The notes: a model not told the origin generated them from the sequence alone. DNA of 64,000 bases from Patescibacteria group bacterium (GCA_018902845.1 JAHIPV010000020.1:74810-138809); one strand, 5' to 3'; counted from the stretch's first letter, positions 1 to 64,000 are shown. Translations and numbers: made by a program.

Positions 1-152
1 ACCTCCATCGGTAATTAGAATTTCTATTCTTCCAGAGACTGACTTCGCTGTTGCTTGCTTGGGATAATCTTGAGAATTAATAGATTTTAGGCATTTGTTT
101 AATACTTTGGCTGAGTTGAGAGTTGGAATTACAATTGAAATGGTTGGATAGG
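1..152 (-). CDS. Glycosyltransferase family 2, N-terminal fragment. The gene starts at 152 and continues beyond the window edge.
   Basis: Reverse-complement translation of 152..1 gives MTYPTISIVIPTLNSAKVLNKCLKSINSQDYPKQATAKSVSGRIEILITDGG, a typical GT2 N-terminus. It is too short in-window to appear in the ORF track. Confidence 0.5.
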
Positions 153-761
153 TCATTTTTTAACTTTTATTAGCCAGTAACAGGCGTAATTTTTGAGTAT
201 TTTGGGTACTTTTTTTGAAAAGAGTTTGATTTTTTCAGCATGGAGACCAATGGCAACAGGGATAATTTTGTATTTTTTAAATTTTGATTTGATGAGTATT
301 TTTTTTAAGTCTTGGTAAGTATATTCCCTTTGGTGTTCTTGATATGGGAATTTTTTTTTGCCTGTGAAGAATTCTACAAAAACTCTGATTAATCTTTTTC
401 TGTTTGGTGTAGTTATCAACCCGATGCCGTTTGGTTTTAGAACTCGATAAGTTTCGTTTATGGCATTTAGATCATTTTTTGTGTGTTCCAGGGTGTGACT
501 GCTTATTAGTATTTCGAAGGTATTTGATTTGACATTGTTTAATTTTTGCCAATCCCCTTGTTTATATTTTATATTTTTAAAACTTTTGGGAATTCTTTGC
601 GCATAATATTCAATACCCAAACATTTTTTGCAATGTTTTGCCAGTTGTTTTGTTTTGCTTTTGTTACTGCTACCGATTTCGATTACATTTTTTTTGTTGT
701 TGGCGATTTTTTTGTATTCTTTTAGTAGAAGTATCCAATCGTATGAATTTTTTATTTTCAT
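153..761 (-). CDS. Class I SAM-dependent methyltransferase
   Basis: VIEIGSS glycine-rich SAM-binding motif and typical Methyltransf_11-like layout. It lies adjacent to a radical SAM gene and the GT genes. Confidence 0.55.
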   Translation of the reverse strand: MKIKNSYDWILLLKEYKKIANNKKNVIEIGSSNKSKTKQLAKHCKKCLGIEYYAQRIPKSFKNIKYKQGDWQKLNNVKSNTFEILISSHTLEHTKNDLNAINETYRVLKPNGIGLITTPNRKRLIRVFVEFFTGKKKFPYQEHQREYTYQDLKKILIKSKFKKYKIIPVAIGLHAEKIKLFSKKVPKILKNYACYWLIKVKK

Positions 762-762
762 T

Positions 763-2388
763 TTATTTAAAATCTTTGAGTTTGGAGAGGAATTTTAGGG
801 AGTATTTGGCTAGGTGGGTGAAGTCGTTTAGTGATCTTATGGAGAGGGTTTTTTTTAGTAAGAATTTTGGTGTTAAAACACCTTTGAAAAGAGATTGAAT
901 GAGTTGTATTTGTTTTTGTGATGAAATAGGAGATTTTATAACCGGCTGGCTCATGTCGTATTTGTCCCAATCTAGGGTAAGAAGCTTGTTGGCTTGTTTA
1001 AGCTCTTTAAAGAGTGGGGTGCCAGGATAAGGAATTAATAGAGTGGCTTGGATGGAATCGGCTAATCCGTCCTTGAATAACTGGCGAGCTAAGTTGAGGG
1101 TTTTTTGGGCGTCTGCTTCCGTTTCCCAAGGATAACCAATTATGATGGTAAGGTGATTTTCTATGCCGGCTTTCTTGGCCTTTACAAGAGTTTCTTTGAT
1201 ATCTGATACTTTAATGTTTTTATTGATTTTGTCTAAAGTTTTTTGATTAGCCGATTCAAGTCCGTATAGAATAAATCTGAAACCGGCTTTTTTCATCAGA
1301 TTAAACTCTTTTTGAGATAAAGCCCCCATTCTTAAATTACAGCCTAGTTTAATTTTTTTGTTAAAGCCCTTGTCTATTAGGCCATGGCAAAATTTTTTGA
1401 GCCAATCCCCTGTTGGAATAGTGCCGGAGTCATCAAAGACTTCTTTTATGTTGTAGTTTTCAATTAGATTTTGAATTTCTTTAAGGCTATGTTGAGGTGA
1501 AAAAGTTCGATAGGATTGGTTGGGAAAAAGTGTTGTCCAAGAACAGAAGGTACATTTTCCCCACCAGCAGTCACGGCCTGACATTATGTAGGCGCCGGGA
1601 GTGTATTTGAAGTTTGAATTGTTGTGGGTGTAGAGGTGGTTTTTGGTTAGAGCGCGATCGATGATGGGAAGAATATCTAGATTATGATTTTTTAGAGCGA
1701 ATTTACCGGAATTGAGGATTTTAGTATTGGTTTGTTTTTGGGGGGATCCTTCGACAGGCTCAGGATGACGATGGATAAGATTATGGTTTGATCTGAAATA
1801 AAAGCCCGGTGAGAGTTTGGTTCCTTTGGTCAGATGTTCTACTAAATTTAAGAGCATAAAGTCGTAGTCACCGCCGGTAAGGATGTAATCGACAGGAGAA
1901 TTTTTGAATGATTCAAGGGGTAGTGCGGTGACATGGTCGCCCATTAGGACGATGGTAGGCGTGTGTTGATTCCGATGGGATCTGCCAGAGGTGGACAGGT
2001 TGCCACGTCTGCGGGCGACCGCAAGGGTCGCCCCTACAAAAGAATTTGCAATAACAGTGGGTTTGTTGACAGAAAAAGCCTTTTTTATATCTTTGATTAT
2101 TTTCCAATGGGTTTTGATTACAGGAGTTTTGGTTTCTATGGCGATAAGACCGGGAGAGCGTTTGATTAAACGATTGAGCCATTGTTGGTATGAAAGTTTT
2201 TCTGCAATAGCGTCATCCCAAAAGACTTTATGGCCTTTGGATTTTAAAAGTGTAGCTGTATAAGCTGGAATGACGGGGAAAATAAAGTTTTTTGTGTTGG
2301 TCCATTGAAATTGGCGGTTTTGGGATAAAAAAGCAGTTTGGCTGTTTTTGTGAAGAGGAGGATAAGAGATTGAGACGGAAAAAGACAT
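763..2388 (-). CDS. B12-binding domain radical SAM protein. It carries two in-frame repeat insertions.
   Basis: Radical SAM cysteine cluster CWWGKCTFCSW and an N-terminal B12-binding-like domain. The ORF contains repeat copies at 1741..1774 (HRHPEPVEGS) and 1985..2057 (SFVGATLAVARRRGN). Confidence 0.7.
   Translation of the reverse strand: MSFSVSISYPPLHKNSQTAFLSQNRQFQWTNTKNFIFPVIPAYTATLLKSKGHKVFWDDAIAEKLSYQQWLNRLIKRSPGLIAIETKTPVIKTHWKIIKDIKKAFSVNKPTVIANSFVGATLAVARRRGNLSTSGRSHRNQHTPTIVLMGDHVTALPLESFKNSPVDYILTGGDYDFMLLNLVEHLTKGTKLSPGFYFRSNHNLIHRHPEPVEGSPQKQTNTKILNSGKFALKNHNLDILPIIDRALTKNHLYTHNNSNFKYTPGAYIMSGRDCWWGKCTFCSWTTLFPNQSYRTFSPQHSLKEIQNLIENYNIKEVFDDSGTIPTGDWLKKFCHGLIDKGFNKKIKLGCNLRMGALSQKEFNLMKKAGFRFILYGLESANQKTLDKINKNIKVSDIKETLVKAKKAGIENHLTIIIGYPWETEADAQKTLNLARQLFKDGLADSIQATLLIPYPGTPLFKELKQANKLLTLDWDKYDMSQPVIKSPISSQKQIQLIQSLFKGVLTPKFLLKKTLSIRSLNDFTHLAKYSLKFLSKLKDFK
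1985..2057. repeat. Family-A repeat (GNRA-tetraloop GC hairpin GGGCGACC-GCAA-GGTCGCCC with conserved flanks), intragenic in the radical SAM gene
   Basis: ccagaggtggacaggttgccacgtctgcgggcgaccgcaagggtcgcccctacaaaagaatttgcaataacag. Near-identical copies occur at 47437..47523, 48690..48768, 60124..60198 and 60380..60466. Confidence 0.9.
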
Positions 2389-3348: not shown

Positions 3349-3444
3349 ATTTTTAATTTCTAATTTTTAATTTCTAAATTAATTTTGCCATCACGAGTCC
3401 TTCGGTGGCACTCAGGACAAGCTTCGCGTGGCAATGACAGATAA

Positions 3445-4258: not shown

Positions 4259-5404
4259 TCATTTAATCGGGCGACCGCAAGGGTCGCCCTTACGAATGTA
4301 TTTCGTGGCAATTGCGGGGTGACAGAGTCGGTAAACGGCCAGAGTTTGGAGAGCGGTCAGTTTCCATGAAAAAGCCCTGGCTCTTTTTTGTCCCAGTTTG
4401 GAAAATTTTTGTCTTAATTTTGGACTGGTCATGAGTTTTTTTAGGGCCTTTTTAATACTTTTAAGGGATTTTGGATTAAAAAATACTCCGTTATAGTCCA
4501 TAATTTCGGCCAAACTGCTTTGAAGACTATAACAAACCGGGCAACCCGATTGCATAGCCTCTAAGGGGGTAAGACCGAAGCCTTCGGCAAAAGATGGTTG
4601 GCAATAAAAAGTAGCCAGATTGTAGATTTTGGCAAGATCCGGATCAGGAACGAAGCCGGTAAGTGTTAAAAGCGGGTGGTGTGTTTTTTGGAGCCAGAGG
4701 AGATCTTGGTTCCAGGGATGATTAATTACGTTTTTGCGAGTAGCGGCAGAACCAACTATAACAAGTGGGTATTTTAAGGATAAACAGGCCCTAACAAGAT
4801 TGGGAATGTTTTTGTTCCAATTGATATCGCCAACATAAAGAACAAATTTTTTTGGCAGTTTGTATTTTTTCCTAATTTTTTCTAATTCTTTTGTGTTTTT
4901 GATTGATTTAAAAATTGGATCGGCTCCGAGATAAATAGGATAGATTTGGTCGGTTGGATATTTAGTGATTTTGTGTATTGCGTATTTTGAGAAGTGTGAA
5001 TCTGTGATAATATAATCGACTTTTTTTAGACGATTTTTTTGGATTAGCCAACGGACATTACCTTTTATGCCGACTGGATAGTGTTTTTTAAATTGGCGAG
5101 GGATAAGATCGTGGACTGTGACTATGGTAGGAACGGTTTTTTGAGGTAGGGTTAGTTGAAAAGGATCGAAATAAGGATAATGCAATAAATCAAAAGTTCC
5201 AATTTTTAATTTTTCCCCCTTCGGGTGACTTCGCTTCGCTTCGCAATTTTTAATTAGTTTTAAAGACCAGGATTTATATTCGGGGTTGGTTTTTAGTTCT
5301 CTTTGGAGATATTTGACTAGATTTTTGGTATAAAAACCAACTCCTCTTTTGGAATTGGCATTTTTTGTGGGAGAGATATCAATAGCGATTTTAAATTTTT
5401 TCAT
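4259..5404 (-). CDS. Glycosyltransferase family 4 (GT1-fold, RfaG-like)
   Basis: C-terminal EGFGLTPLEAMQSGCPV motif of GT4. The start is placed at MKKFKIAIDISP (ATG 5402..5404), overlapping the upstream stop. The last ~8 codons and the stop are supplied by the GC-hairpin repeat at 4266..4324. Confidence 0.75.
   Translation of the reverse strand: MKKFKIAIDISPTKNANSKRGVGFYTKNLVKYLQRELKTNPEYKSWSLKLIKNCEAKRSHPKGEKLKIGTFDLLHYPYFDPFQLTLPQKTVPTIVTVHDLIPRQFKKHYPVGIKGNVRWLIQKNRLKKVDYIITDSHFSKYAIHKITKYPTDQIYPIYLGADPIFKSIKNTKELEKIRKKYKLPKKFVLYVGDINWNKNIPNLVRACLSLKYPLVIVGSAATRKNVINHPWNQDLLWLQKTHHPLLTLTGFVPDPDLAKIYNLATFYCQPSFAEGFGLTPLEAMQSGCPVCYSLQSSLAEIMDYNGVFFNPKSLKSIKKALKKLMTSPKLRQKFSKLGQKRARAFSWKLTALQTLAVYRLCHPAIATKYIRKGDPCGRPIK
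4266..4324. repeat. Family-A repeat copy spanning the GT4 3' end and the GT2 5' region
   Basis: Hairpin core 4269..4289 with a ...cgtggcaattgcggggtgacag tail. Confidence 0.85.
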
Positions 5405-6288: not shown

Positions 6289-8085
6289 TCATTGTTTAGT
6301 ATATATTTTAAACGCTGGGAGGTCGTTTGTGAAATTGATGATATCAACCGGCTGAATTGGAACAGTTTCGTTTGAGGCTACTATAAGTGAATTTGAAGGA
6401 ATATTATCCCAATTAATTTTTTCAAAATGAATATTATCTATTTGTTTTACTGTAGAAAAACCAAATTTATCCGGAGGTGTTAATTTGATTTGGTTATGAA
6501 GGGCAGGTGGTGGATATTTTGAATAAAAAAGATACAGGATGTAAGGTTGATCGTATTTATCGGTTATATAGATGTTGCTAAAATTATTTTTTTGAGACTC
6601 TATATAAGGAATTAGCCGATCAAAACCTTGATTCCATGCAAAGGGATAGCGTTTGGGGGAGTGAATGTGATAAGAGCTAAGGTAGTAGGCTATCGAGTAG
6701 GAGTAAAAAATAACAAGAAAGAAGAGTATGGAGGGTTGTTTGTGAGTAAGACTTAAGAAAGATTGAATACCAAAAGCGGTGAGGATAGTGAGGGGGATGA
6801 CCATGGGAAGAGCGCGGAGAGCGGATGGGGCCTGGAAAGTGAGGGATGAAGCTATGGGTGAGAGAAAAAGCCAGAGAAAAATAAACTTATAATTTGTTTG
6901 AGTGGTTATGAGATCCCTCGACTTCGCTCGGGATGACAATAACTTCGCTCGGGATGACAATAACTTCGCTCGGGATGACAATAACTTCGCTCGGGATGAC
7001 AGCATAACTACAATGCCTAGAATTAAAAATGGGAGTTCTATTAAATGGAATTGACCTATTTCTGGGCTTTTGGAACGTGGGACCTCGTCTCCATTGATAA
7101 AAAGAAAGTTTAAATCAAAGTGGGAAAAGTATTTTTCGGCCCATGAAATTGCGTAAAGAACTCGGGCATTATGTGTGATTCTGTTAATCAGTGTTGTTTT
7201 TTGACTTTGGTTAAAGTGGTGATTTAATAATTCATTGGAACGCCACAGTGGACCTTGATCGGCTGTTATACCAACTCCGGAAAAACGAGTTGTACCGCCA
7301 TTCTTGAAGAAGGAAAAAACAACTGGCAGAGTGATAAGGATGCCAAAAAATAAAGAAAGGATAAATTTTTTATGAGATCCTTCGGCAAGCTCAGGATGAC
7401 GTAGTATTTTATTTCGATTAATAAAAAATAAAGATAAAGCAAGTAAGGGGGCGAAAATGCGGGCAGAGTGATAGGTGTATAAAGAAAGAGAAAGGAAAAG
7501 AGCGAAGAGATAAAGATTGTGTTTTCCCCCTGCGGGTGACTGCGCTGATGCTTGTTTTGTGTTAGTGTTTTTGTAGAAATAATAAGTGCCGATAATAATA
7601 AACGAGAGGGCGGTACAGGATTCCCAGGCACCGCGGGAAAAGTGGATGTGCCAGGGGTTAATAGAAAGCAAGAAAGCAGAAAGTAGAGAAAGTGTTAAAT
7701 TGTTTGTAATAAGAAGAACAAGTTTGTAAAGAAAATAAATTGAAAGAATTGAAAGAATTAGGTTAGGGAGGCGAACAGCAAGAGGAGTAAGGCCAAGGAT
7801 TTTGATAAAAGGAAGAGTAAGGTAAAAATATCCTCCGGGTTTGAAGTCACTAAATGATTTAAAATGAATGGGCCAAGGGATACTGTGTTCGTCTTTTCCG
7901 GTTTGGAGTAAAGAGTAAGCATTGTAGCCGATAGCGGCTTCGTCTGGATTGAGAGAAGGAAGATTGGAGATATTGTAGAAACGGAGAAGAATTGCAAGGA
8001 TGAGAATATATACGATAGGATTCTTCGCTACGCTCAGAATGACGACTGTTGGTTTGGTTTTGTTTGATTGATGATTGTTTGTCAT
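6289..8085 (-). CDS. GT39/ArnT-like GT-C membrane glycosyltransferase, a protein O-mannosyltransferase-like paralog
   Basis: N-terminal NPDEAAIGYNAYSLLQTGKDEH..KPGGYFY..LAVRLPNLILS (DE motif, loop 1 of GT39/GT83) with many TM helices. It contains in-frame repeats: 6908..7004 (SSRAKLL x4), 7374..7401 (RHPELAEGS) and 7525..7557 (QSPAGG). Confidence 0.7.
   Translation of the reverse strand: MTNNHQSNKTKPTVVILSVAKNPIVYILILAILLRFYNISNLPSLNPDEAAIGYNAYSLLQTGKDEHSIPWPIHFKSFSDFKPGGYFYLTLPFIKILGLTPLAVRLPNLILSILSIYFLYKLVLLITNNLTLSLLSAFLLSINPWHIHFSRGAWESCTALSFIIIGTYYFYKNTNTKQASAQSPAGGKHNLYLFALFLSLSLYTYHSARIFAPLLALSLFFINRNKILRHPELAEGSHKKFILSLFFGILITLPVVFSFFKNGGTTRFSGVGITADQGPLWRSNELLNHHFNQSQKTTLINRITHNARVLYAISWAEKYFSHFDLNFLFINGDEVPRSKSPEIGQFHLIELPFLILGIVVMLSSRAKLLSSRAKLLSSRAKLLSSRAKSRDLITTQTNYKFIFLWLFLSPIASSLTFQAPSALRALPMVIPLTILTAFGIQSFLSLTHKQPSILFFLVIFYSYSIAYYLSSYHIHSPKRYPFAWNQGFDRLIPYIESQKNNFSNIYITDKYDQPYILYLFYSKYPPPALHNQIKLTPPDKFGFSTVKQIDNIHFEKINWDNIPSNSLIVASNETVPIQPVDIINFTNDLPAFKIYTKQ
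6908..7004. repeat. Family-B repeat with its 21-bp terminal unit tandemly amplified ~3.8x, in-frame in the GT39 gene
   Basis: gagatccctcg + (acttcgctcgggatgacaata) x3 + a partial unit. Translated on the minus strand as SSRAKLL x4. Confidence 0.9.
7525..7557. repeat. Family-C repeat CCCCCTGCGGGTGACTGCG, in-frame in the GT39 gene (QSPAGG)
   Basis: Other copies at 9234..9267, 9379..9410, 9962..9990, 14315..14345, 35410..35450 and 44616..44648. Variants with a ..GACTTCGCTTCGC tail occur at 5214..5247 and 20934..20964. Confidence 0.85.
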
Positions 8086-8104: not shown

Positions 8105-9913
8105 TTATTTTGGGAGGTTATGAGATCCCTCCACTTCGGTCGGGATGACAGAAGTTTGGTAGGCATAGAAGGTGGAAATATTATTAATTGGAGATAATTG
8201 TATTAATTTAGAAAAATCAGTTGATTTATCTATACCAAGGCGAATTATTTCTTGGTGTGAATAAATTACCAAAGTATTTTGTTGGCTTTTGATGAATTGG
8301 AAATCTGGTGCATGAAAGATAATGTTGTCGAGTTTTTCAATTTTACCTGTATCCCCTACTTGGTTTTTTGTCAAAAATGCTTGTTGTTGATATTTAAGAG
8401 GTGGATATTTTGAATAAAAAAGATAGTAGATGTATGGTTGGTTGTAGAAATCGGTAAAATATATATTGTCATATTTATTTTGATTTTTGATTAAATATTG
8501 AATTGATTCTTCGTAGCCGTATAAAAAGTCTTGAGGTGATTTTTTGGTCATATGGTTTAGGTATAGATCTGAATAGTAAAAAAAAGAGAAAAAATAGACA
8601 GTAATGAGCAAAAAGTAAAAAGTAAAGAAAATTGATTTATGACCGTGCCTACCGGCAGGCAGGTTTATGAAATATGATTTATGAATAAAACTTAAAAAAG
8701 AATTGAGGCCAAGAGAAATAAAGAAAACTATGGGGATGGAGAGGGACATGGTGCGGGTGGCTTGGATGGAATCACGGGTAAGAGAAGCGGGAATGGGGGC
8801 GATGAGAAGCCAGAATAGGAAGAAGATGGAAAGCGTTGAAAACGAAAGTGAATGAAAAATTCCAATGAGAAGAAAAATTATACTGGGGTAAAGAATAACA
8901 CCGATATAAGGAGCTGAGTGGCGGGGATTTTGCCAATCGCCTTGGAAAATAAGAAATTTAGGCGAAAAGTGATTAAAATAGCGGTTTAAAAAATTTCGTA
9001 GAAAAAAGATTGGTTGATTGTAAAAAATTTGATAGTCCAGTTTATTGCCTTCGGAGATAATTGTTTCAGTTTCTTGTTGGCTTCTGGGATAAGAAAAAAG
9101 ACTTAAGACTTTTAGACGATTAGTGTCAGATGAAAATAAGAGGCCATAAATAATGGGAAGGGAAAGAAGAAAGAGAGGAAGAATGAAGTGTTTTAAAAAT
9201 TTATTTTTGTTTTTTTGTATTTTCCCCCTGCGGGTGACTGCGTTGACATTTGTTTTTAAATTAATTGAAAACAAAATAAATATCAAAAACAGACTGATCA
9301 TTTTGGCTGACTGATAGGTGTATAGAGAAAGTGAAAAGGCAAGAGACGAGAGTAAAAAATAATTGTTTTTTTTAATGTTCCCCCTGCGGGTGACTGCGTT
9401 TTCGCTTGTGATGGCTTTGAAAAAAAAATAGGAAGCCAGAATTAATTGGAATGTAAGAATATTGGTTTCCCAGGCTCCCCTACTGTAGTGAATGTTGTAT
9501 GGATTGAAGGCTAATATCAGAGCTGATATTAGAGCTAAGTTGCGTGTTTTCTTGTTTTTGGGATTAATTTGGGTGATGAGCAAATACAAAAACAAAGGTG
9601 TTAATGAGCCTAAAATAATTGATGGCAGACGGACTGAAAGCGGATTAAGGCCGAATATGGCCACAAATGGAACAGTAAGATAGATATAAAAACCTGGTTT
9701 GTAGTCTCCAAAAGATTTAAAAATTAATGGCAAGAATTCACCATATTCGTCTTTGCCGGTTTTGAGAATTGAATAAGCGTTATAGCCGATAGCAGTTTCG
9801 TCCCAAAGTAAGGGTGGATACGAATTTGTTTTGTAAATTCTTATAAAAAAAGCTGTGAGGGTGATTAAAAGAAGGATTATTTTGGTTTTTTTATTCATAG
9901 GCAATGATTTCAA
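8105..9913 (-). CDS. GT39/ArnT-like GT-C membrane glycosyltransferase paralog
   Basis: WDETAIGYNAYSILKTGKDEYGEFLPLIFKSFGDYKPGFY..SVRLPSIILG. Two copies of the CCCCCTGCGGGTGACTGCG repeat are read as NAVTRRG (9234..9267, 9379..9410). The C-terminus EVEGSH comes from the repeat at 8117..8150. Confidence 0.7.
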   Translation of the reverse strand: MKSLPMNKKTKIILLLITLTAFFIRIYKTNSYPPLLWDETAIGYNAYSILKTGKDEYGEFLPLIFKSFGDYKPGFYIYLTVPFVAIFGLNPLSVRLPSIILGSLTPLFLYLLITQINPKNKKTRNLALISALILAFNPYNIHYSRGAWETNILTFQLILASYFFFKAITSENAVTRRGNIKKNNYFLLSSLAFSLSLYTYQSAKMISLFLIFILFSINLKTNVNAVTRRGKIQKNKNKFLKHFILPLFLLSLPIIYGLLFSSDTNRLKVLSLFSYPRSQQETETIISEGNKLDYQIFYNQPIFFLRNFLNRYFNHFSPKFLIFQGDWQNPRHSAPYIGVILYPSIIFLLIGIFHSLSFSTLSIFFLFWLLIAPIPASLTRDSIQATRTMSLSIPIVFFISLGLNSFLSFIHKSYFINLPAGRHGHKSIFFTFYFLLITVYFFSFFYYSDLYLNHMTKKSPQDFLYGYEESIQYLIKNQNKYDNIYFTDFYNQPYIYYLFYSKYPPLKYQQQAFLTKNQVGDTGKIEKLDNIIFHAPDFQFIKSQQNTLVIYSHQEIIRLGIDKSTDFSKLIQLSPINNISTFYAYQTSVIPTEVEGSHNLPK

Positions 9914-44655: not shown

Positions 44656-44696
44656 ATGAGGTAGTATAGCAGTTTGATTTAAACTCTGCTTGTTGC

Positions 44697-45521: not shown

Positions 45522-45610
45522 TTCGACCAAAGCGGAGAAATCTCTTGACCACTAGCTTCTAAAAAAGATTGGGAGGTTGGGAGATCCCTCGACTACGCTC
45601 GGGATGACAA
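45516..45610. repeat. Composite 5' leader element variant supplying the start codon of the C39-like gene
   Basis: tgtcatttcgaccaaagcggagaaatctcttgaccac...gggagatccctcgactacgctcgggatgacaa. Confidence 0.85.
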
Positions 45611-45612
45611 AC

Positions 45613-55230: not shown

Positions 55231-57393
55231 TTATAATCTGATTTGGTCGGCGATGGATTGCATAGATAGAAAACAGACTTCGATGAATTTGTCGATGGGA
55301 ATATTTAGACCATCTTTTTTTTCACACAGCATTACTTCTTCTCTTCTGGTGCCGGCGGCAAAACGTGGTTCCTTTTTGAAGCGTTTAGTAATAGATGAGA
55401 GTTTGACATCAGCTAGTTTTTTGGAAGGATATACGAGAGCTACGGCAACAATTAAACCCGTTAGAGAATCAGCGCAAAGAATGGCCCACTTGGCTTTTGA
55501 GTCGTATTTTATTTTTTCTCTACCATCATGAGCCAGAACTATTTGATGAACAAGGTCAGAAATTTCCAGATTGTGTTTGGCTAAAATTTGTTTGGTATTA
55601 GCCGGGTGTTGGTCTTTTAACTCTCCTGAATAATCAATATCGTGAACCAGTCCGGCCAAAAGCCAATCTTCTTTGCTTGGTTCGTTGTCGTCAATATGAT
55701 TGTTTTCTTTTAGATAGTCGTAAATTCCACCCATACAGGCTTCGAGGGTCAAAGAGTGAAAAAAGATATTTGTTTCCAGTTCGCTTTTTACTGCGTTTAG
55801 GTATTTTTGACGATTGGGATAGTTTTTCTTAGTTGACTTAGTCATAGTAACTTTAGTTTGTGTTTTAGGTTTAGTCGTTCTTGATTTTTTTTTCTGTTTG
55901 ATCTTTGGTTTCATTAGTGGGAAGGCGATAATTTCTCGAATAGATTTGGAATCTGTAAATAGTTTTATTAATCTGTCGATTCCAATGGCGATACCACAAG
56001 TGGGCGGAAAACCCTGTTCAATGGCTTCTAGATAATCATAATCTATTTGGTGTGCTTCTTCGAATCCAGCTTCTTCTCTTTTCTTCTCTTCAATAAATCT
56101 TTTTTTTAAGTCAACTGCATCGGTTAATTCAGAGTAATTGTTTCCTAATTCTGAACCAAAAGCAAACATTTCAAATCTTTGCGTAAATCGAGGATCTTTG
56201 CATTTTTTTGCCAAAGGAGAAATTTCAACGGGGTAATCATAAATTATAATCGGTTGTATTAATTTTTCTTCTACTAATTCTTCAAAGGTAAAATTTATAA
56301 TTTCACCGATAGATGTCATGGCCGAAAGTTCTTTGTGTTTAGTTTCATTTAGTTTTATATTCTGCAATGAATTTCTTGCATCTTTTACTGTTTTCCATGT
56401 TAGGGGATCGATTTTTGTGTATTTTTGTATTGCCTCCACTAATCTCAACTTCTCCCATGGACGTTTAAAACTGAACTTTTTTCCTTGATATTTTAATTCA
56501 GTGGTGCCAAGAACTTTTATGGCGGCATGTTCGATGATTTTTTCAATAAGATCCATACCGTATTTGTAATCTTTAAACGCTATCATTGCCTCAAACATGG
56601 TGAATTCGGGATTATGTTGTTGATCTATGCCTTCATTTCTAAATACTTTTGTAATCTCATAAACTTTTTCAAAACCCCCAACAATAAGTCTTTTTAAATA
56701 CATTTCATCAGAAATTCGTAAATAAAACTGAGAATTTAGAGCGTTATGATGGGTAGTAAAAGGTCTAGCAAAAGCACCTCCATAAATTGGTTGCAAAACT
56801 GGAGTTTCTACCTCAATAAATCCTTTTTTTTCTAAAAAATTTCTGATAGAACTGACAACATTGCTTCTAATTCTTAAGGAATTTCTAACTTTTGAATCAA
56901 GTAAAATATCTAAATATCTTTTTCGAAAACGTTCTTCGGTGTCTTTTAGGCCGTGCCATTTGTCAGGTAAGGGACGAAGTGCTTTTGTCAGAAGTTGAAA
57001 ATCTTTTATATCAATAGTAATTTCTCCAGCCGAAGTTTTGATCACTTTTCCTTCAACACCAATAAAGTCTCCTCTGTCTATTAATTTAAGTATTTTAAAT
57101 TTATCCTTACCTAAGTTTTTTTCCTGAAAAAAAAGTTGGATTTTACCTGTTTCGTCTTGAATATCAGCAAAAAGAATTCGACCATGGCCACGTAAACTCA
57201 TTAATCTGCCGGCGGTTTTGACTTGCTTGTTTAAATTTTGGCAACAGTACGAGACGCTGTGTTTTTTGTCGTAAGAATTAGGGTAAGGATCAATGCCTAG
57301 TTCTTTAAGTTTTTTTATTTTTTCTAAACGGAGGTTACGGATTTGACGCAGTTTTGTCTGGTTCATTATCTTAATTTTACACGATTGAGGCAA
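55231..57393 (-). CDS. lysS: Class II lysyl-tRNA synthetase fused to a C-terminal ~220-aa HD-type domain
   Basis: LysRS motifs (FRNEG, GGAFARPF, GIAIGIDRL, ending FPLMKPK at ~aa 500), then a K-rich linker and a domain with H..HD..H..H..D spacing (FFHSL, LVHDIDY, LVHQIV, LAHDG, CADSL). Confidence 0.8.
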   Translation of the reverse strand: MPQSCKIKIMNQTKLRQIRNLRLEKIKKLKELGIDPYPNSYDKKHSVSYCCQNLNKQVKTAGRLMSLRGHGRILFADIQDETGKIQLFFQEKNLGKDKFKILKLIDRGDFIGVEGKVIKTSAGEITIDIKDFQLLTKALRPLPDKWHGLKDTEERFRKRYLDILLDSKVRNSLRIRSNVVSSIRNFLEKKGFIEVETPVLQPIYGGAFARPFTTHHNALNSQFYLRISDEMYLKRLIVGGFEKVYEITKVFRNEGIDQQHNPEFTMFEAMIAFKDYKYGMDLIEKIIEHAAIKVLGTTELKYQGKKFSFKRPWEKLRLVEAIQKYTKIDPLTWKTVKDARNSLQNIKLNETKHKELSAMTSIGEIINFTFEELVEEKLIQPIIIYDYPVEISPLAKKCKDPRFTQRFEMFAFGSELGNNYSELTDAVDLKKRFIEEKKREEAGFEEAHQIDYDYLEAIEQGFPPTCGIAIGIDRLIKLFTDSKSIREIIAFPLMKPKIKQKKKSRTTKPKTQTKVTMTKSTKKNYPNRQKYLNAVKSELETNIFFHSLTLEACMGGIYDYLKENNHIDDNEPSKEDWLLAGLVHDIDYSGELKDQHPANTKQILAKHNLEISDLVHQIVLAHDGREKIKYDSKAKWAILCADSLTGLIVAVALVYPSKKLADVKLSSITKRFKKEPRFAAGTRREEVMLCEKKDGLNIPIDKFIEVCFLSMQSIADQIRL

Positions 57394-58850: not shown

Positions 58851-58920
58851 TCGTCATTCTGAGTGTAGCGAAGAATCCCAAGGGGATCCTTCGTCCGACT
58901 GATCGGACTCAGGATGACGG
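58851..58920. repeat. Tandem pair of family-B modules between the sortase-like gene and tyrS
   Basis: tcgtcattctgagtgtagcgaagaatcccaaggggatccttcgtccgactgatcggactcaggatgacgg. Confidence 0.85.
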
Positions 58921-58932
58921 TGTGTGTGCCGT

Positions 58933-58970
58933 TCCCCCTGCGGGCGACCGCAAGGGTCGCCCCTACAATT
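58933..58970. repeat. Hybrid family-C/family-A repeat in the tyrS leader
   Basis: ccccctgcgggcgaccgcaagggtcgcccctacaatt. Confidence 0.85.
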
Positions 58971-58997: not shown

Positions 58998-60131
58998 ATG
59001 ACTGTTGATGAAAGATTGAAATTAATTACCAGAAATTGTCAGGAGGTGTTGGTTGAGAAGGAGTTGAAGGAATTGCTGGGAAATGGGACAGAGTTGAAGC
59101 ACTATATCGGTTTTGAAATTTCGGGAATGGTGCATTTGGGGACTGGGTTGATTTCGATGGGTAAAATTGCTGATTTTGTAAAAGCCGGAGTTAAATGTCA
59201 AATTTTTTTGGCTGATTTTCATTCTTATTTAAATAATAAATTAGGCGGAAATTGGGAAAATATTCGCTGGGCAACAGAAAATTATTTTAAAGAGGGACTG
59301 ATTGCTTCTTTAAAATGTTTTGGGGTTGATGAAAGCCAAATTGAATTTATTACCGGAAAAGAATTGTACACAGATAATATTGTCCACTGGGAAACTTTTA
59401 TGGAAGTGGGTAAGCATGTGACTTTGTCACGAAATTTAAGATCAATTTCGATTATGGGAAAAATGCAGGGCAAGGATGTTGATATGGCCACTCTTTTTTA
59501 TCCCCCGCTTCAGGTAGCTGACATTTTTACTATGGGGGTTAATTTAGCTCATGCCGGAACGGACCAAAGAAAAGCTCATGTGATAGCTCGACAAGTGGCA
59601 AAGAAATTGATAATTAATCCGCTTAAAAATGCCAAAGGTAAAGTAATAGCACCGATTGCTATCCACCAAAATTTGATTGCTGGATTAAGCGGACCGACTA
59701 CAGGCGAGAATAGTGAAGAAAGTTTAAAAATGAGTAAGTCAAAACCAGGTAGTGCTATTTTTGTACACGATACTGCTGATGAAATCAGAGAAAAAGTCAA
59801 AAAAGCTTATGGGCCACCAAAAGAGATTGAGTTTAATCCGTTGATTAATTGGATGGAAAATTTGGTTTTTTGGGGAGAAGGTGAAAGTAAGGACGGACTT
59901 AAGGTGAAAAGGGCTGAAAGATTTGGAGGGGATGTAAGTTATTATAAAATTGCTGATTTGATAGATGATTATAAAAGTGAAAAATTACATCCGATGGATT
60001 TAAAGAGTGCATTAAGCGAGTGGTTGGTTGAAAAACTAGAACCGGCCAGAAAGCATTTTGAAAGTGAAAAGGCTAAAAAAGGGTTGGAAAAGATGAGAAA
60101 GTTGATGCTGTCATCACAAGGAACGAAGTGA
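58998..60131 (+). CDS. tyrS: Tyrosyl-tRNA synthetase, archaeal/eukaryotic type
   Basis: HYIGFEISGMVHLG (HIGH-like), KMSKS, and a C-terminal RAERFGGD..LHPMDLK..LEPARK collinear with the archaeal-type TyrRS. The start is placed at the internal Met because the upstream 28 codons are repeat 58933..58970. Confidence 0.8.
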   Translation: MTVDERLKLITRNCQEVLVEKELKELLGNGTELKHYIGFEISGMVHLGTGLISMGKIADFVKAGVKCQIFLADFHSYLNNKLGGNWENIRWATENYFKEGLIASLKCFGVDESQIEFITGKELYTDNIVHWETFMEVGKHVTLSRNLRSISIMGKMQGKDVDMATLFYPPLQVADIFTMGVNLAHAGTDQRKAHVIARQVAKKLIINPLKNAKGKVIAPIAIHQNLIAGLSGPTTGENSEESLKMSKSKPGSAIFVHDTADEIREKVKKAYGPPKEIEFNPLINWMENLVFWGEGESKDGLKVKRAERFGGDVSYYKIADLIDDYKSEKLHPMDLKSALSEWLVEKLEPARKHFESEKAKKGLEKMRKLMLSSQGTK

Positions 60132-60198
60132 TCTTCCAGAAGCGGACACGTTGTCATGACTGCGGGCGACCGCAAGGGTCGCCCCTACAAAAGAAGCG
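60124..60198. repeat. Family-A repeat between convergent tyrS and uvrC, overlapping both stop codons
   Basis: ttccagaagcggacacgttgtcatgactgcgggcgaccgcaagggtcgcccctacaaaagaagcgac. Confidence 0.9.
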
Positions 60199-61651
60199 AC
60201 ATTAATTCTTTGCGGTATTTATTGGCAAAGCGGTGAGATTCGTCGCGAAGGTGACGGAGAAGATTTAAGGCTTGAGAGTTTTTTGGAAGGTTGATTTGTT
60301 GAAATGAATTTTTTGTTTTTATGACTATAGTTTCGTCGCTTTTGGCAAGGCCGATTAAGACGATGTGGTTTGTTTTTTTCCGACGGAATTTTCCAGAGGC
60401 AGGCAGGTTGCCATGATTGCGGGCGACCGCAAGGGTCGCCCCTACAAAAGAATTTGCAATGACAGAATGGGTGACAGTTACCTGAGGTTTGCCACCGTCG
60501 ACAAGGATGATGTTAGGAAATTGCCATTCGGGGTGGTTTAGACGGCGGGAAACGAGTTGTGAAATCATTAAGGCGTCGTTTTGTTGAAGTCTGTTGTCAT
60601 CCTGAGAAAGCTTGCGACCGAAGGATCCCGTGGGAATTTTTGACTCCAACGGGATTCTTCGTCTCCCTGCGGGTGACTCAGAATGACGGGAGAGAGGTTT
60701 CGGGTGACGATAATGGCGGATTTTGAATTTGCGGTATTGAGACTTGTCTATAAAACCTTCTTGAAAAACAACCATAGAACCGACAAAATATTTGTTTCCT
60801 AAATTAGATATATCATAAGCTTCGATGCGGTTGACTGATTTTAGCTTAGGAAAATAGGGCAAAAGGATTGTTTTGAGTTCGTTTAGAGCCGAATTGGTCT
60901 TGTCACTAGCAAGATTAATGGATTGAAAAAGATTGTTTAAATTTTTCCAGCCATCAGTGATGTATTTTAATGATTCAATCTGATCACGTAAGCTTATGGC
61001 TTTTTCGTAATTTTGGGTTTTGGAGGCTTGGCGCATTTGTGTTTCCAGCGACTTGACTAGATTTTTGATTTGGCCGTTTAGGATTTTTTTGATATACCCA
61101 ATGGTCCTTCTGTATTGTTTGGCATTTGGACTAGGACCAGGGCATAGATTTAGATGGCAGTAAAGACAATTTTTTGGATGAGTCTGGTGATAATCTCTGA
61201 ATGGGAAAATTTTTCTGATTGTTTTTAGCAGAGTGCGGACAGAAGATGAGTTGGGAAAAGGACCATAAAGATGTGAAGTGGTTTTTGTTTTGGTTAATTT
61301 GTTTTTGTGAGTAGCAAAAATTCTGGGAATTAACTCTTTGGTGATAACTATATAAATATAGTTTTTGTCGTCTTTGAGCTGAGAGTTGTATTTGGGTTTG
61401 TGTTTTTTGATTAAGTTGGCTTCAAGAACTAGAGCTTCGATTTCTGAACCAACTGTTTTGTAGCTGATGTTACTGATTTGTGAAATTAATTGGCGGGTTT
61501 TTGGACCCAGAGTATTGTTTTTTTGGAAATATTGGGAAATGCGGTTTTTTAGATTTATGGCCTTGCCAATGTAAATTATTTCTTTTTTTGAATTTTTGAA
61601 AATATAAACGCCGGGAGAGGTGGGAAAAGAGCTTGTGTCTTTTTTGTTCAT
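60185..61651 (-). CDS. uvrC: Excinuclease ABC subunit C (no HhH domain), with two in-frame repeat insertions
   Basis: N-terminal GIY-YIG (GVYIFKNSKKEIIYIGKAINLKNR..YF), a UVR domain and an EndoV-like domain. Inserts at 60380..60466 (SFVGATLAVARNHGN) and 60595..60690. The stop is provided by repeat 60124..60198. Confidence 0.8.
   Translation of the reverse strand: MNKKDTSSFPTSPGVYIFKNSKKEIIYIGKAINLKNRISQYFQKNNTLGPKTRQLISQISNISYKTVGSEIEALVLEANLIKKHKPKYNSQLKDDKNYIYIVITKELIPRIFATHKNKLTKTKTTSHLYGPFPNSSSVRTLLKTIRKIFPFRDYHQTHPKNCLYCHLNLCPGPSPNAKQYRRTIGYIKKILNGQIKNLVKSLETQMRQASKTQNYEKAISLRDQIESLKYITDGWKNLNNLFQSINLASDKTNSALNELKTILLPYFPKLKSVNRIEAYDISNLGNKYFVGSMVVFQEGFIDKSQYRKFKIRHYRHPKPLSRHSESPAGRRRIPLESKIPTGSFGRKLSQDDNRLQQNDALMISQLVSRRLNHPEWQFPNIILVDGGKPQVTVTHSVIANSFVGATLAVARNHGNLPASGKFRRKKTNHIVLIGLAKSDETIVIKTKNSFQQINLPKNSQALNLLRHLRDESHRFANKYRKELMSLLL
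60380..60466. repeat. Family-A repeat inside the uvrC coding sequence
   Basis: ccgacggaattttccagaggcaggcaggttgccatgattgcgggcgaccgcaagggtcgcccctacaaaagaatttgcaatgacag. Confidence 0.9.
60595..60690. repeat. Two family-B modules in opposite orientations inside the uvrC coding sequence
   Basis: tgtcatcctgagaaagcttgcgaccgaaggatccc ... ccaacgggattcttcgtctccctgcgggtgactcagaatgacggg. Confidence 0.85.
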
Positions 61652-61839: not shown

Positions 61840-61923
61840 ATATTACGATTATATTATGTTTATAATACTTGTCAAGAATTGAGTTTTTTGTGCTAGAATA
61901 AAAATGTTGAATAAAGTTATTTT

Positions 61924-62358
61924 TTGAAAAATATTAAAAATATGCCAAAAGTAGAAAATCATGTTAATAGACTTACGGCGGACATGAGAGGGAATGATTG
62001 GAAGGTAGAGGATGGTCAAGAGTCTAGGTTAAGGGATAGATTTGGTGAAGAAATGAAAACATTTATGCCTTGGCTAGATTCATCTTTGTTTGGTCCTTGG
62101 ACAGATCCGCAAACTATCTGTACCAGACACACAAACAGAAGGAAAAGGGCACAGTTGAGAGAAATGAATGAGAAAAGATGGACAAGAGAGATAATTATTA
62201 GTGATGATGCTGTAGATGATTTCGTTGTTGCTTTTGATATTATGGCTCCAGACGAAGGGAAAAGGATTTTTGGATATGTAGACAGAGAAGGTAACTTTAT
62301 TGCACAATTTGGAAAAGGTGGTGCGTTTTGTATGGTTACTATGCAAAAATCAAACTAA
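61924..62358 (+). CDS. Hypothetical protein
   Basis: 144-aa ORF on the rare plus strand, locally GC-richer than its surroundings. An extended -10 (TGcTAGAAT) lies ~40 nt upstream. Confidence 0.35.
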   Translation: MKNIKNMPKVENHVNRLTADMRGNDWKVEDGQESRLRDRFGEEMKTFMPWLDSSLFGPWTDPQTICTRHTNRRKRAQLREMNEKRWTREIIISDDAVDDFVVAFDIMAPDEGKRIFGYVDREGNFIAQFGKGGAFCMVTMQKSN

Positions 62359-64000
62359 TTAAGTTTTTGTTTGAGATAGTGTGTGGTGTGGGAAGATTTG
62401 GATTTTAGGATATCTTGAAGCGTGCCTTGGGTAACTATTTGGCCTCCTTTGTTTCCTCCTTCCGGCCCCAAATCAATTATCCAATCCGCATTTTTTATTA
62501 TTTCCTGATTGTGTTCAATAATGACAACACTATTGCCTTTGTCTGCTAAACGTCGCAAAACCTTTATTAATTTTTCAATATCATAAAAATGGAGACCGGT
62601 GGTGGGCTCGTCAAAAATGTAAAGGGTGTGAATGTTTTTTACTTTTACCAATTCTCGACTGATTTTTAACCTTTGTGACTCCCCTCCCGAAAGAGTATTG
62701 GAAGCTTGACCCAGTTCCAGGTAACCCAAGCCCACTTCTTGAAGCGTGTTTAAGCTTTTTTTTATTCTGGGAACATTTTCGAAAAAAACTTCTGCCTCAT
62801 CTATGGTGAGTTCTAAAACTTGGGCAATATTTTTGCCTTTGTATTCTACTTCCAGAGTTTCTTCTTTAAAACGGGTGCCGTGACATTCGTCACAAGTGAC
62901 ATAAACATCGGGTAAAAATTGCATTTCTATTTTTATTTGGCCTTGACCCCGACAAGCTTGACAACGGCCACCTTTGACATTAAATGAAAAATGACCGGCT
63001 TGGTAGCCTCTGATTTGAGATTCAACAGTTCTGGAAAAAATTGCTCTTATTTCGTCAAAAATTTTTGTATATGTAGCCGGGTTGCTACGAGGAGTACGAC
63101 CAATTGGTGATTGGTCAACCAGCAAAATATCACCGATGTTTTCAATTCCTTTGATTTCTTTGTAATCACCGACTACGCCTCGATAAGCTGGATTGAAATG
63201 CTTGCGAATGGCACCATAAAGAGTGTCGTGGACTAAAGTTGATTTACCGGATCCGGAAACACCGGTGACACAAACAAGTTTGTTTAGGGGTAAGTTTAGG
63301 GTGATGTTTTTTAGATTCCATTGAGTGCAGTTGGTGATGGTAAGAAGGGCTGTGTCATCGCGGGATGAAATTCCGTCATTCTGAGGTGAAGCCGAAGAAT
63401 CTCGTTGTTGGTTCTGATAACTATGGGATCCTTCGCCGTGCTCAGGATGACGGTGGAGAAGCTTAGGGTTACGGCGGGAAGATAAATATTCTCCGGTTAG
63501 GGAGTTGGAATTCTTTTTGATTTGAGCTAAAGTACCTTGGGCTATTACTTGACCGCCATCTTTACCGGCAAGAGGGCCAAAATCAACAATGTAATCGGCT
63601 GATTTTATGACTTCTTCGTCATGTTCTACCACTATAACACTGTTACCCAAATCTCTTAGCCTATTTAGAGTTTTTATGAGCCTTTGGTTGTCGCGGGGAT
63701 GAAGACCAATAGTTGGTTCGTCCAGGATATAAAGAACACCGCTAAGACCGGTGCCGATTTGACTGGCAAGTCTGATACGCTGAGACTCGCCACTTGATAA
63801 GGTTCCGGCTTCTCTTTCCAGCGATAAATAATCAAGACCAACGCTTAATAAAAATTCCAGCCTAGTATTAATTTCATTTTTAATGGGGATTAATATCTCC
63901 TTTTCTTGGTTGCTATTTAAACTTTTGTGCAAATCCCCTACCCAATTTAATAATTTACTGATTGATAATTGGCAGAGCTGATAAATGTTTTTTTCATTAA
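62355..64000 (-). CDS. uvrA: Excinuclease ABC subunit A, C-terminal ~two-thirds; the N-terminus is beyond the window. It carries an in-frame repeat insertion.
   Basis: Second ABC module (GVSGSGKSTL, LSGGESQR), a UvrA zinc finger CQACRGQGQ..CDECHGTRF and signature 1 LSGGESQRIRLASQIG. The insert at 63373..63452 encodes HRHPEHGEGSHSYQNQQRDSSASPQND. Confidence 0.85.
   Translation of the reverse strand, partial: NEKNIYQLCQLSISKLLNWVGDLHKSLNSNQEKEILIPIKNEINTRLEFLLSVGLDYLSLEREAGTLSSGESQRIRLASQIGTGLSGVLYILDEPTIGLHPRDNQRLIKTLNRLRDLGNSVIVVEHDEEVIKSADYIVDFGPLAGKDGGQVIAQGTLAQIKKNSNSLTGEYLSSRRNPKLLHRHPEHGEGSHSYQNQQRDSSASPQNDGISSRDDTALLTITNCTQWNLKNITLNLPLNKLVCVTGVSGSGKSTLVHDTLYGAIRKHFNPAYRGVVGDYKEIKGIENIGDILLVDQSPIGRTPRSNPATYTKIFDEIRAIFSRTVESQIRGYQAGHFSFNVKGGRCQACRGQGQIKIEMQFLPDVYVTCDECHGTRFKEETLEVEYKGKNIAQVLELTIDEAEVFFENVPRIKKSLNTLQEVGLGYLELGQASNTLSGGESQRLKISRELVKVKNIHTLYIFDEPTTGLHFYDIEKLIKVLRRLADKGNSVVIIEHNQEIIKNADWIIDLGPEGGNKGGQIVTQGTLQDILKSKSSHTTHYLKQKLN
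63373..63452. repeat. Long family-B variant in-frame in uvrA
   Basis: ccgtcattctgaggtgaagccgaagaatctcgttgttggttctgataactatgggatccttcgccgtgctcaggatgacgg. Confidence 0.9.

Follow-up and report, generated by a model that had tools for sequence, protein, structure and literature searches.

The closest described counterparts of the repeats reported here are the GTAG-tagged and CGTC-tagged superfamilies of bacterial repetitive extragenic palindromic (REP) sequences (Di Nocera et al., 2013, BMC Genomics; PMC3733652) and the hairpins associated with the GIY-YIG nuclease SsnA (Chenal et al., 2025, Nat Commun; PMC11893778). With these we compare a dense population of short hairpin modules, and a small SsnA-like gene lying among them, in a stretch of 64,000 nt from a Patescibacteria group bacterium (GCA_018902845.1, JAHIPV010000020.1:74810-138809), the whole of which is hereafter called the window. 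In the CGTC superfamily the tag may also read TGTC or CCTC and the stems open with A-T pairs; class CGTC-1 comprises the Neisseria dRS3 repeat and the Rickettsia palindromic element (RPE) RPE-6, and CGTC-4 equals RPE-4, these two being the only RPEs of the CGTC type. In-frame copies within genes are known and are strikingly frequent in uvrA, uvrB, uvrC, polA and recBCD, and the ends of GTAG repeats often supply a TAG stop codon. Systems of REPs with a REP-associated tyrosine transposase (RAYT) are well documented, and for the CGTC-tagged REPs no RAYT association is recorded (Table 1 of Di Nocera et al., 2013; PMC3733652).

SsnA is a single-domain GIY-YIG protein of 94 aa (CDD cd10448), which binds an oriented form of dRS3 (NTS, CGTCATTCCCGCGMAVGCGGGAATCYRG) as single-stranded DNA (ssDNA) only and cuts just upstream of it (Chenal et al., 2025; PMC11893778). 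The same authors found binding of the hairpin restricted to ssDNA, with cleavage a few bases upstream, for four SsnA homologues, reported that the enzyme of N. meningitidis is inactive on RNA and double-stranded DNA (dsDNA), and mutated residues Y6, Y17 and E64. In many phyla the ssnA homologues are flanked by “Ssn-related motifs” (SRMs), and the layout NTS-ssnA-NTS has been likened to an insertion sequence (IS). Of the NTS copies of N. meningitidis, 2% are intragenic. The main text of that study does not mention bacteria of the Candidate Phyla Radiation (CPR).

Our results make it quite probable that the window represents a patescibacterial genome (CPR, Microgenomates-like) that was colonised by these two known superfamilies of palindromic repeats, together with an SsnA-like partner, and in which the repeats were filtered by coding constraint. 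The most frequent repeat, module B, fits with its relatives the CGTC/TGTC-tagged REPs, alias SRMs; module A is a GTAG-tagged REP; and the open reading frame (ORF) at 23183-23458 is, judged from its sequence, an SsnA-like gene. An earlier note on this DNA had left the population unexplained, with “no transposase in view”. Neither statement holds, as the elements fit the GTAG/CGTC superfamilies (PMC3733652) and the SRMs (PMC11893778) and the window does contain a repeat-associated gene, flanked by module-B hairpins. The novelty lies in the host phylum, in a stem variant missed by the published SRM pattern, in the extreme extent of in-frame insertion into coding sequence, and in the nesting of modules in hairpin loops.

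The 91-aa product of the SsnA-like gene matches the GIY-YIG family of Pfam (E=1.4e-13), contains no other domain and keeps all invariant residues of the family, including Y7, Y17, R27, H31 and E64. The gene is bracketed on both sides by TGTCATCCCGAGCGyAGyCGAGGGATCTC, i.e., by oriented hairpins at 23495-23527 and at 23145-23176, the latter being the CCC-type hairpin of a downstream composite that closes with an inverted hairpin (23024-23077). Homologues of ~60% identity occur across Nitrospirae, Chloroflexi, Bacteroidetes, Cyanobacteria, Acidobacteria, Saccharibacteria and others, mostly on contigs of <3 kb, and the C-terminal tail of many of them, such as …SLRSE*, results from read-through into an inverted GTCATTCCGAGCGAAGCGAGGAATC hairpin. 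The association of gene and hairpin was examined at 80 homologous loci from species-representative genomes of ~15 phyla, out of at least 590 matches, with the hairpin defined as GTCAT-xyz…z'y'x'-AT. Such a hairpin lies within 150 nt of the gene at 64 of the 80 loci and on both sides of it at 46, and the hairpin density near the gene is 6.5 per kb versus 0.21 per kb at >400 nt distance, a ~30-fold enrichment. The commonest layout is inverted, with a + copy upstream and a - copy downstream (28 loci). The triplet xyz covaries around the homologues too (135 of 150 hairpins versus 40 expected).

On the sense (-) strand, module B consists of an unpaired (C/T)GTC tag, an A-T and a T-A pair, the variable triplet xyz, GAG, a variable middle, CGA, the complement z'y'x', AT and a C-rich tail, and it ends in ATC(C/T)C. 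The stem has five Watson-Crick pairs, then tandem G·A/A·G, then one or two or more further pairs, and the loop ranges from 3 to >40 nt. All listed copies open with (C/T)GTC-AT and close with AT-C, with one CCTC variant at 19037. When hairpins were located by their flanks alone (GTCAT…GAN and NGA…ATC), i.e., without demanding complementarity, the triplet was fully Watson-Crick in 38 of 40 window hairpins, whereas 10 are expected if the partners are shuffled (maximum 21 in 1000 trials); the types are CCT/AGG (14), CCC/GGG (10), TCT/AGA (8), TTC/GAA (4) and TCC/GGA (2). None of the 40 hairpins has a G·T pair in the triplet, and this Watson-Crick-only covariation points, therefore, to a structure of DNA and not of RNA. 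The triplet changes are compensatory, in a DNA-type hairpin. The middle may comprise 3-5 bases or consist of an additional perfect stem (TCCGATnnATCGGA), of module C (TCACCCGCAGGGGGA) or of module E (GTGTCCGCCTCTGGAGGA), and that of TGC-type hairpins can hold a complete GTAG hairpin of module A. A GC-rich palindrome, CCTGCCTGCCGGCAGGCAGG, was noted at 23078-23100 in an intergenic composite and, degenerate, at 8650-8672 in a PMT-like ORF; it also fills hairpin loops beside ssnA homologues of other phyla (loci L024 and L047). A hammerhead or kink-turn reading of CUGAG…CGAAG was dropped, since the core misfits and the evidence favours DNA.

Module A (GGGCGACC-GCAAG-GGTCGCCC; 10 exact copies in the window) has a GTAG tag, a GC-rich 8-bp stem and a 5-nt loop. 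It had been described as a GNRA tetraloop, a description that the loop GCAAG contradicts, and the 20-mer given for it, GGGCGACCGCAAGGTCGCCC, has no match in the window because one G had been dropped from the sequence. With its tag, as GTAG-GGGCGACC-CTTGC-GGTCGCCC, it is represented by nine exact copies of the 25-mer GTAGGGGCGACCCTTGCGGTCGCCC (at 2013, 38399, 44697, 47476, 48725, 52763, 58942, 60164 and 60421) and one GTAA variant at 4269. Half of the copies sit in the loop of a CGTC-type hairpin, and five have a long form with a CCAGAGG..GTTGCCA arm and a CCTACAAAA..GCAATGACAG arm; a GGGATTGCCACG..GCAATGACAG type occurs at 29021, 32635, 38320 and 60415. Module C, with a GTCAC head and a 3-bp stem, is found nested in hairpin loops or solo, and its nine solo copies are all intragenic and all in sense orientation (- strand). 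Pairs of hairpins in inverted orientation also make up two types of composite. Type I, of the form CGTCATYCTGA…TCAGAATGACG (84-95 nt), occurs in genes and is open in four of the six frames; type II, TGTCATCCCGAG…TCGAAATGACA (110-150 nt), encloses three small hairpins, has stops in five of the six frames and is strictly intergenic, so that only the stop-free type is present in genes. Folded as DNA, the composites are clearly stable (z -4.2 for 63373-63456 and -4.3 for 42901-43009). A fusion of modules C and A at 58933-58966 was confirmed, and the proposal of REP/MITE-like hairpin modules that shuffle into mosaics was borne out.

The automatic census of the window yielded 62 blocks (3,368 nt, 5.3%), of which ~8 were judged spurious by eye; the curated set consists of ~54 sites with ~80 individual modules, covering ~3.0 kb or ~4.7% of the window. 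The earlier estimate (>60 copies, ~5 kb, ~8%) was right in recognising a dense population and modestly too high in the share of 8%. GC-rich 11-12-mers with at least three copies cover 2.8-2.9% of the window versus ~0 in Markov controls; a k-mer coverage of 8.7% was obtained solely when AT-rich low-complexity k-mers were counted, so that a GC filter was needed. Likewise, a first loose regular expression for hairpins gave 97 matches in the window versus 98 in shuffles and was tightened by GC content and flanks. All four recurring modules of the earlier note are present far above chance, with 37 matches of CTCRGGATGACR versus 0.27 expected and 11 of CCCCCTGCGGGTGACTGCG versus 0, and the density is, as that note held, high for a small genome; it amounts by our count to ~0.8 hairpins per kb. 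Nor are the repeats confined to the window: 12 kb of flanking DNA contain five more CGTC hairpins and one more module A, and a contig of an 84%-identical relative contains three CGTC hairpins. An assembly artefact was dismissed because, over the 3.8-13.8 kb that they share, four independent assemblies show 100% identity: the Patescibacteria metagenome-assembled genome (MAG) GCA_018895715.1, two more MAGs from NCBI and an assembly from ENA.

Gene calls were taken from the public record of contig JAHIMY010000028.1 (GCA_018895715.1), window position p corresponding to record position p + 44,850, and make up 94.2% of the window. Of the ~54 repeat sites, ~31 (~57%) are wholly contained in annotated genes, 14 lie between genes and 8-9 overlap with the end of a gene. 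Per base, repeats account for ~1/3 of the 3.7 kb of spacer versus ~2.5% of the coding DNA, which means that most genic copies are still eliminated by selection. None of the annotated ORFs is broken by the ~31 intragenic sites, all of which are in frame, in hosts that include UvrA, UvrC, glycosyltransferases and PMT-like proteins. Because the module occurs in two reading frames (RHPE…EGS or VILS…KD) and in non-coding DNA as well, the unit of repetition is the DNA and not the peptide. To judge from their reading frames, the genic copies would be translated as extra peptide; translational bypass or splicing of the inserts was discarded, as all frames stay open.

Genes for nucleotide excision repair are examples. 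UvrC carries two inserts (~43 and ~28 codons), which are missing from orthologues of 412-430 aa; …FKIRHYRHPKPLSR… is one of the peptides that would span an insert junction. At the first site a ground state of five residues is found in 111 of 119 homologues, and at least six of the eight occupied homologues have CGTC-type peptides, e.g., VIARSEATKQS; at the second site at least 10 homologues have VILS…KDL or VIASEAKQS. Across Microgenomates these two codon positions hold differing variants (CCT, TGC, TGC+GTAG), always in the V-I-x-S frame. In a DNA alignment, site 2 of the 84%-identical relative is occupied by a plain CCT hairpin of 25 nt exactly where the window has a ~90-nt composite of TGC and GTAG hairpins, and the repeat content of the spacer downstream of uvrC differs between the two as well; the polymorphism between relatives that the earlier note envisaged thus exists. 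In the AlphaFold model of UvrC, with a modest mean predicted local distance difference test score (pLDDT) of 65.5, both inserts score 32-45 versus ~80 in the neighbouring blocks, in keeping with disordered loops at the surface. When UvrA is compared with its T. maritima counterpart (3pih), ~28 additional residues stand between aligned blocks, at the position of an 84-nt composite, and uvrB, outside the window (~67598-67685; L001 3967-4054), contains an in-frame inverted pair of CGTC hairpins. All three excinuclease genes are, therefore, decorated with repeats, matching the repair-gene pattern of Di Nocera et al. (2013).

Repeats also coincide with the ends of genes. The ATGACA end of an inverted hairpin (23024-23029, 24621-24626 and 45516-45521) forms the annotated ATG of the genes 22223-23029, 23586-24626 and 44730-45521, all of which begin MTK…; these starts are either donated by the repeats or due to gene callers that extend the three genes too far, into repeats. 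The TGA within CATCCTGAG, in the CCT hairpin of the mosaic at 28946-29069, is the stop codon of gene 28994-30892, and the genes for Fic, DUF4349 and UvrC stop at the TAG of a GTAG tag. In total, repeats provide at least five stop codons and three annotated starts. Beside the long form of module A at 60109-60208, the stop of a + strand synthetase gene lies in a CAC-type hairpin on that strand.

Genic solo copies are predominantly in sense orientation (~22 versus 4 antisense, counted by hand). Stop-codon content was rejected as the cause of this bias, since both orientations have two of three frames open. The bias could arise from exposure of ssDNA in replication or transcription, two sources that the window cannot separate because nearly all of its genes lie on one strand.

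The repeats of the window thus resemble several known systems and depart from each in specific respects. With the Ssn/SRM system they have in common a ~90-aa single-domain GIY-YIG gene between oriented hairpins, repeats of the form (C/T)GTCAT…ATCY and a high-copy scatter over the genome. However, the stem of the NTS is continuous (ATTCCCGCG), whereas that of module B is interrupted by the tandem G·A, the loops are far more variable and host other modules, the intragenic share is ~57% instead of the 2% of the N. meningitidis NTS, the host is a CPR bacterium, and the enzyme of the window is a putative one. With the CGTC-tagged REPs (PMC3733652) module B has in common the unpaired CGTC/TGTC/CCTC tag, the A-T/T-A start of the stem, the short C-rich tail, inverted dimers and in-frame intragenic copies, including those in uvrA, uvrB and uvrC (and ~25 other sites in the window). 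The described members, however, have stems of 8-9 bp and loops of 4-5 nt, whereas here the stem contains two non-Watson-Crick positions and the loop is very variable, and the repeats occur in a new phylum and at a much higher density. Module A agrees with GTAG REPs and with REP doublets (REPINs) in its tag, in a palindrome within the range of 5-13 bp and in providing the TAG stop of three genes; the embedding of half of its copies in the loop of a CGTC-type hairpin sets it apart. The RPEs offer a further parallel, by description, as short palindromes in frame in housekeeping genes of a reduced genome, tolerated as surface peptides and polymorphic between relatives; here, too, the insertions are in frame in conserved ORFs and absent from orthologues. 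RPE-1 is longer (>100 nt) and presumably unrelated in sequence to the repeats of the window.

The positions of all features in the window are compiled below.

Table. Repeat features and the SsnA-like gene of the window (window coordinates).
Feature	Position	Strand	Remarks
SsnA-like gene, 91-aa single-domain GIY-YIG nuclease	23183..23458	-	public gene call with PF01541
CGTC/TGTC hairpin (CCC), 36 nt upstream of SsnA-like gene	23495..23527	-	TGTCATCCCGAGCGTAGCCGAGGGATCTC
Composite directly downstream of SsnA-like gene	23024..23176	-	CCC hairpin, 3-4 small hairpins, inverted TTC hairpin; gives ATG of GT2 gene 22223-23029
Intergenic composite II (TGTCAT…ATGACA inverted ends)	24621..24729	-	gives ATG of GT2 gene 23586-24626
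Intergenic composite II upstream of prfB	42901..43009	-	DNA fold -21.6 kcal/mol, z -4.3
Intergenic inverted hairpin pair (CCC + TTC)	45516..45611	-	gives ATG of peptidase C39 gene
Intergenic cluster, serS/lysS spacer	55062..55249	-	CTT, TCC and degenerate CCC hairpins + module E
Intergenic mosaic	58852..58969	-	inverted CGTC pair + module C-like + GTAG hairpin
Mosaic, 3' end of gene 28994-30892	28946..29069	-	TGC hairpin with module E in loop, CCT, inverted TCT
Intragenic composite I in GT2	17415..17508	-	CGTCATYCTGA…TCAGAATGACG, read as RHPDHPQGGEGSPRNRQKQQRDSSASPQND; module C in one loop
Intragenic composite I in paralogous GT2	24335..24429	-	
Intragenic composite I in UvrC, insert site 1	60595..60724	-	~43 codons
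Intragenic TGC hairpin with GTAG hairpin in loop, UvrC insert site 2	60375..60467	-	
Intragenic composite I in UvrA	63373..63456	-	84 nt = 28 codons; DNA fold z -4.2
Intragenic module A long form in radical SAM gene	1970..2057	-	GTAG hairpin within TGC-type frame + module E
Intragenic solo CGTC hairpin (CCT), radical SAM gene	1742..1773	-	read as RHPEPVEGSP
Intragenic CCC hairpin after three exact 21-nt copies of its own 5' half, PMT-like gene	6908..7020	-	
Intragenic solo CGTC hairpin (CCT), PMT-like gene	7375..7403	-	
Solo CGTC hairpin (TCT), N-terminal region of PMT-like gene 6289-8085	8018..8046	-	
Solo TGTC hairpin (CCC), C-terminal region of PMT-like gene 8105-9898	8120..8152	-	
Intragenic solo CGTC hairpin (CCT)	10035..10063	-	
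Intragenic CGTC hairpin (CCT), inner stem	11562..11599	-	
CGTC hairpin (CCT), inner stem, near N-terminus of PMT_2 gene 15041-16792	16725..16764	-	DNA fold -8.5 kcal/mol, z -2.5
Intragenic CCTC-tagged hairpin in YfhO	19037..19065	-	
Intragenic TGTC hairpin (CCT)	29567..29599	-	
Intragenic TGC-type hairpin	32627..32663	-	
Intragenic long CCT hairpin	33140..33194	-	
Intragenic long CCT hairpin, second copy in same gene as 33140..33194	33488..33547	-	
Intragenic CGTC hairpin (CCT) in PMT_2	35739..35775	-	
Intragenic GTAG hairpin + long TGC-type hairpin (AT-rich loop), N-terminal part of M23 peptidase gene	38320..38448	-	
GTAG-type hairpin (GTAA variant)	4268..4296	-	encodes C-terminal tail of GT4
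Solo intergenic GTAG hairpin	44693..44724	-	
Intergenic module A long form	47433..47555	-	
Module A long form	48682..48769	-	TAG of tag = Fic gene stop (gene end 48746)
Solo GTAG hairpin	52762..52790	-	TAG = stop of gene 52784-53620
Module A long form between tyrS/trpS and uvrC	60109..60208	-	TAG = uvrC stop
Module C (GTCACCCGMAGGGGGA), intragenic	5211..5235	-	
Other intragenic solo module C	7522-7546, 9220-9242, 9378-9398, 9960-9981, 14312-14333, 20930-20954, 35408-35430, 44611-44635	-	
Degenerate intergenic TGC-type hairpin	3385..3440	-	
Further intergenic solo hairpins	33931-33960, 34748-34786, 37155-37184 (+ strand), 40167-40199, 49864-49896		

The first 37 kb of the window form a glycosylation/envelope cluster (GT2, GT4, PMT-like, Wzx, YfhO), and the remainder contains housekeeping genes (FtsEX, PrfB, SecA, SerRS, LysRS, GreA, UvrC, UvrA). 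The G+C content is 35%, and nearly all ORFs lie on the - strand. Along the whole window the + strand has a GC skew of +0.14 to +0.37, without a switch, the coding (-) strand being strongly C-rich; a similar G/C strand disparity was reported for Microgenomates of the order UBA1400 (PMC7143001). A tRNA scan of the window returned none. A HicA/HicB toxin-antitoxin pair lies at 43467-43974, between a peptidyl-prolyl isomerase gene and a hypothetical gene. In a PMT-like glycosyltransferase, positions 6921-7001 are a tandem array (Tandem Repeats Finder: period 21, 3.9 copies, 100% identical) in which the 5' half of a CCC-type hairpin stands four times; it is in frame and gives (LSSRAKL)x4, which looks like recent slippage at a repeat. 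The long hairpin of 38320-38448 has a near-identical copy at another locus in a relative (L088). Tandem 8-nt repeats, (TGGATGAC)n or GTCATCCA as read on the - strand, occur at 39376-39427, 22164-22181 and 48616-48672, directly upstream of the starts of ftsX, GT4 and DHH genes and beside a common CATGAGTTAAGTATATATG motif; they resemble reiterated hairpin heads or promoter-region repeats. AT-rich periodic repeats (AATTTCTAATTTTTAA, TAAATTC units) in the intergenic spacers at 3343-3377, 14961-14993, 28887-28931 and 58795-58824 may be promoter or terminator regions. One contig of a MAG (JAHINI010000113.1) ends at ~60162 of the window, beside the GTAG hairpin at 60164-60188 downstream of uvrC, and hairpin repeats appear to fragment metagenome assemblies.

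Different origins for the repeats have to be considered. All modules might be classical REPs or REPINs moved by a RAYT (IS200/IS605-like, Y1 transposase) that is encoded elsewhere, the GIY-YIG gene being a bystander. Module A does have the defining GTAG tag and GC-rich palindrome, the RAYT-REP systems are well established, and the gene calls cover only ~76 kb of the genome. Module B, however, has a CGTC/TGTC tag, for which no RAYT association is on record, and its hairpins are strongly enriched beside the GIY-YIG gene over 80 loci; moreover, no Y1 transposase is present among the gene calls of these ~76 kb (window and flanks), and we consider this origin improbable. The composites, with their inverted ends (CGTCATYCTGAG…CTCAGRATGACG and TGTCATYYCGA…TCGAAATGACA), their size of 84-150 nt and the polymorphism between relatives, are reminiscent of miniature transposable elements with inverted repeats (MITEs), i.e., deletion derivatives of an IS with a DDE transposase, bounded by terminal inverted repeats and target-site duplications. 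Such duplications were not seen at the borders of the composites when the sequences were read, no formal test being made; neither an IS nor a DDE transposase is present in the window, the majority of copies are single hairpins instead of pairs of terminal inverted repeats, and the inverted ends consist of the very hairpin units that surround ssnA. A MITE origin is very hard to maintain.

It has also been proposed that REPs downstream of ORFs act in RNA (PMC3733652), and the modules could be conserved as RNA elements such as terminators, mRNA stabilisers, attenuators or small RNAs, with which the orientation of nearly all solo copies along the genes and the stable folding of composites would agree. 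More than half of the sites lie inside ORFs, however, the variable triplet lacks G·U-type pairs, no Rfam family was matched by the window at gathering thresholds, the T-run of module A stands before and not after the hairpin on the transcribed strand, and SsnA of N. meningitidis does not act on RNA or dsDNA (PMC11893778); a role in RNA as the reason for conservation seems, on balance, unlikely, to about the same degree as a RAYT origin. Finally, RHPE..EGS, VILS..KD, AQSPAGGK and VGATLAVAR recur in several proteins, as they would if peptides had been selected as a functional linker or motif common to glycosylation and repair proteins. Yet non-coding spacers contain these DNA modules as well, the modules are read in at least two frames and occasionally antisense, and orthologues function without the inserts, which are predicted to be disordered, so that selection for the peptides is scarcely credible.

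This leaves colonisation by both REP superfamilies together with an SsnA-like partner as the reading that we prefer, and a number of results count against it. The published SRM pattern, HGTCWYN(0-2)YYVSBRHN(0-5)WNVSBRGN(0-2)RNCYNB, has 0 matches in the window versus 0.09 in shuffles, and it detects hairpins at 4 of the 80 homologous loci (5%) versus 64 (80%) by the generalised hairpin definition. By inspection, the head (HGTCWY) and the tail (RNCY) of the pattern fit the window hairpins and the stem misfits; the subclass is missed because the pattern demands a continuous GC-rich stem, whereas here five pairs are followed by the tandem G·A. Membership, therefore, rests on the generalised definition together with the common tag and tail. 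An NCBIfam search with the 91-aa nuclease returned no family, and its assignment to cd10448 is presumptive. By energy alone the simple hairpin is weak (-2.4 kcal/mol as DNA, z ~0). The lack of a RAYT among the gene calls, noted above, leaves module A without a candidate enzyme in these ~76 kb, and its 25-mer is found exactly in at least 120 metagenome stretches with unrelated flanks; the 80 contigs retrieved range from 34 to 70% G+C and mostly have one copy each, and among these 80 loci no gene recurs as neighbour of the GTAG hairpin. The census covers ~76 kb of one contig, and the translation of the inserts is deduced from the intact reading frames and not seen directly.

If colonisation with an SsnA-like partner is accepted, the SsnA-like protein would, by analogy with its studied homologues, bind the hairpins of the window as ssDNA and cut a few bases upstream, for which the Watson-Crick-only covariation of the triplet gives indirect support. 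The repeats may then spread or be homogenised when, after cleavage of ssDNA, other (ectopic) copies serve for repair or recombination, or through an IS-like process. Because 94% of the genome is coding, surviving copies would be confined to short spacers and to permissive protein loops where they are in a stop-free frame; the intragenic ones would be read through as extra disordered peptide loops, and those at gene ends would donate ATG, TGA or TAG codons. A bolder proposal is that the hairpin–ssnA–hairpin unit is an autonomous mobile element, whose GIY-YIG nuclease drives spread and concerted replacement via ssDNA, including into coding loops. The differing hairpin variants at the same UvrC codons are compatible with it and suggest repeated cleavage and repair from ectopic copies. 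To our knowledge, GIY-YIG hydrolases have no strand-transfer chemistry, and mobilisation driven by SsnA is, therefore, a conjecture under the preferred reading as well; we regard the autonomous element as rather doubtful.

The findings have a practical side, since these repeats appear to break MAG assemblies, to shift the calls of gene starts and gene ends and to add spurious peptide stretches to protein families. The published SRM pattern overlooks a large, phylum-spanning subclass with tandem G·A, as the detection of 5% versus 80% at 80 ssnA homologues indicates. The SsnA/hairpin-repeat system and the GTAG and CGTC superfamilies of REPs are extended to the CPR, where the colonisation of coding sequence is extreme, with more than half of the sites within genes and in frame, and with copies in all three excision-repair genes. 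If the hairpin–ssnA–hairpin unit were indeed autonomous, it would represent a mode of transposition or homing by a class of nuclease outside the known bacterial transposases.

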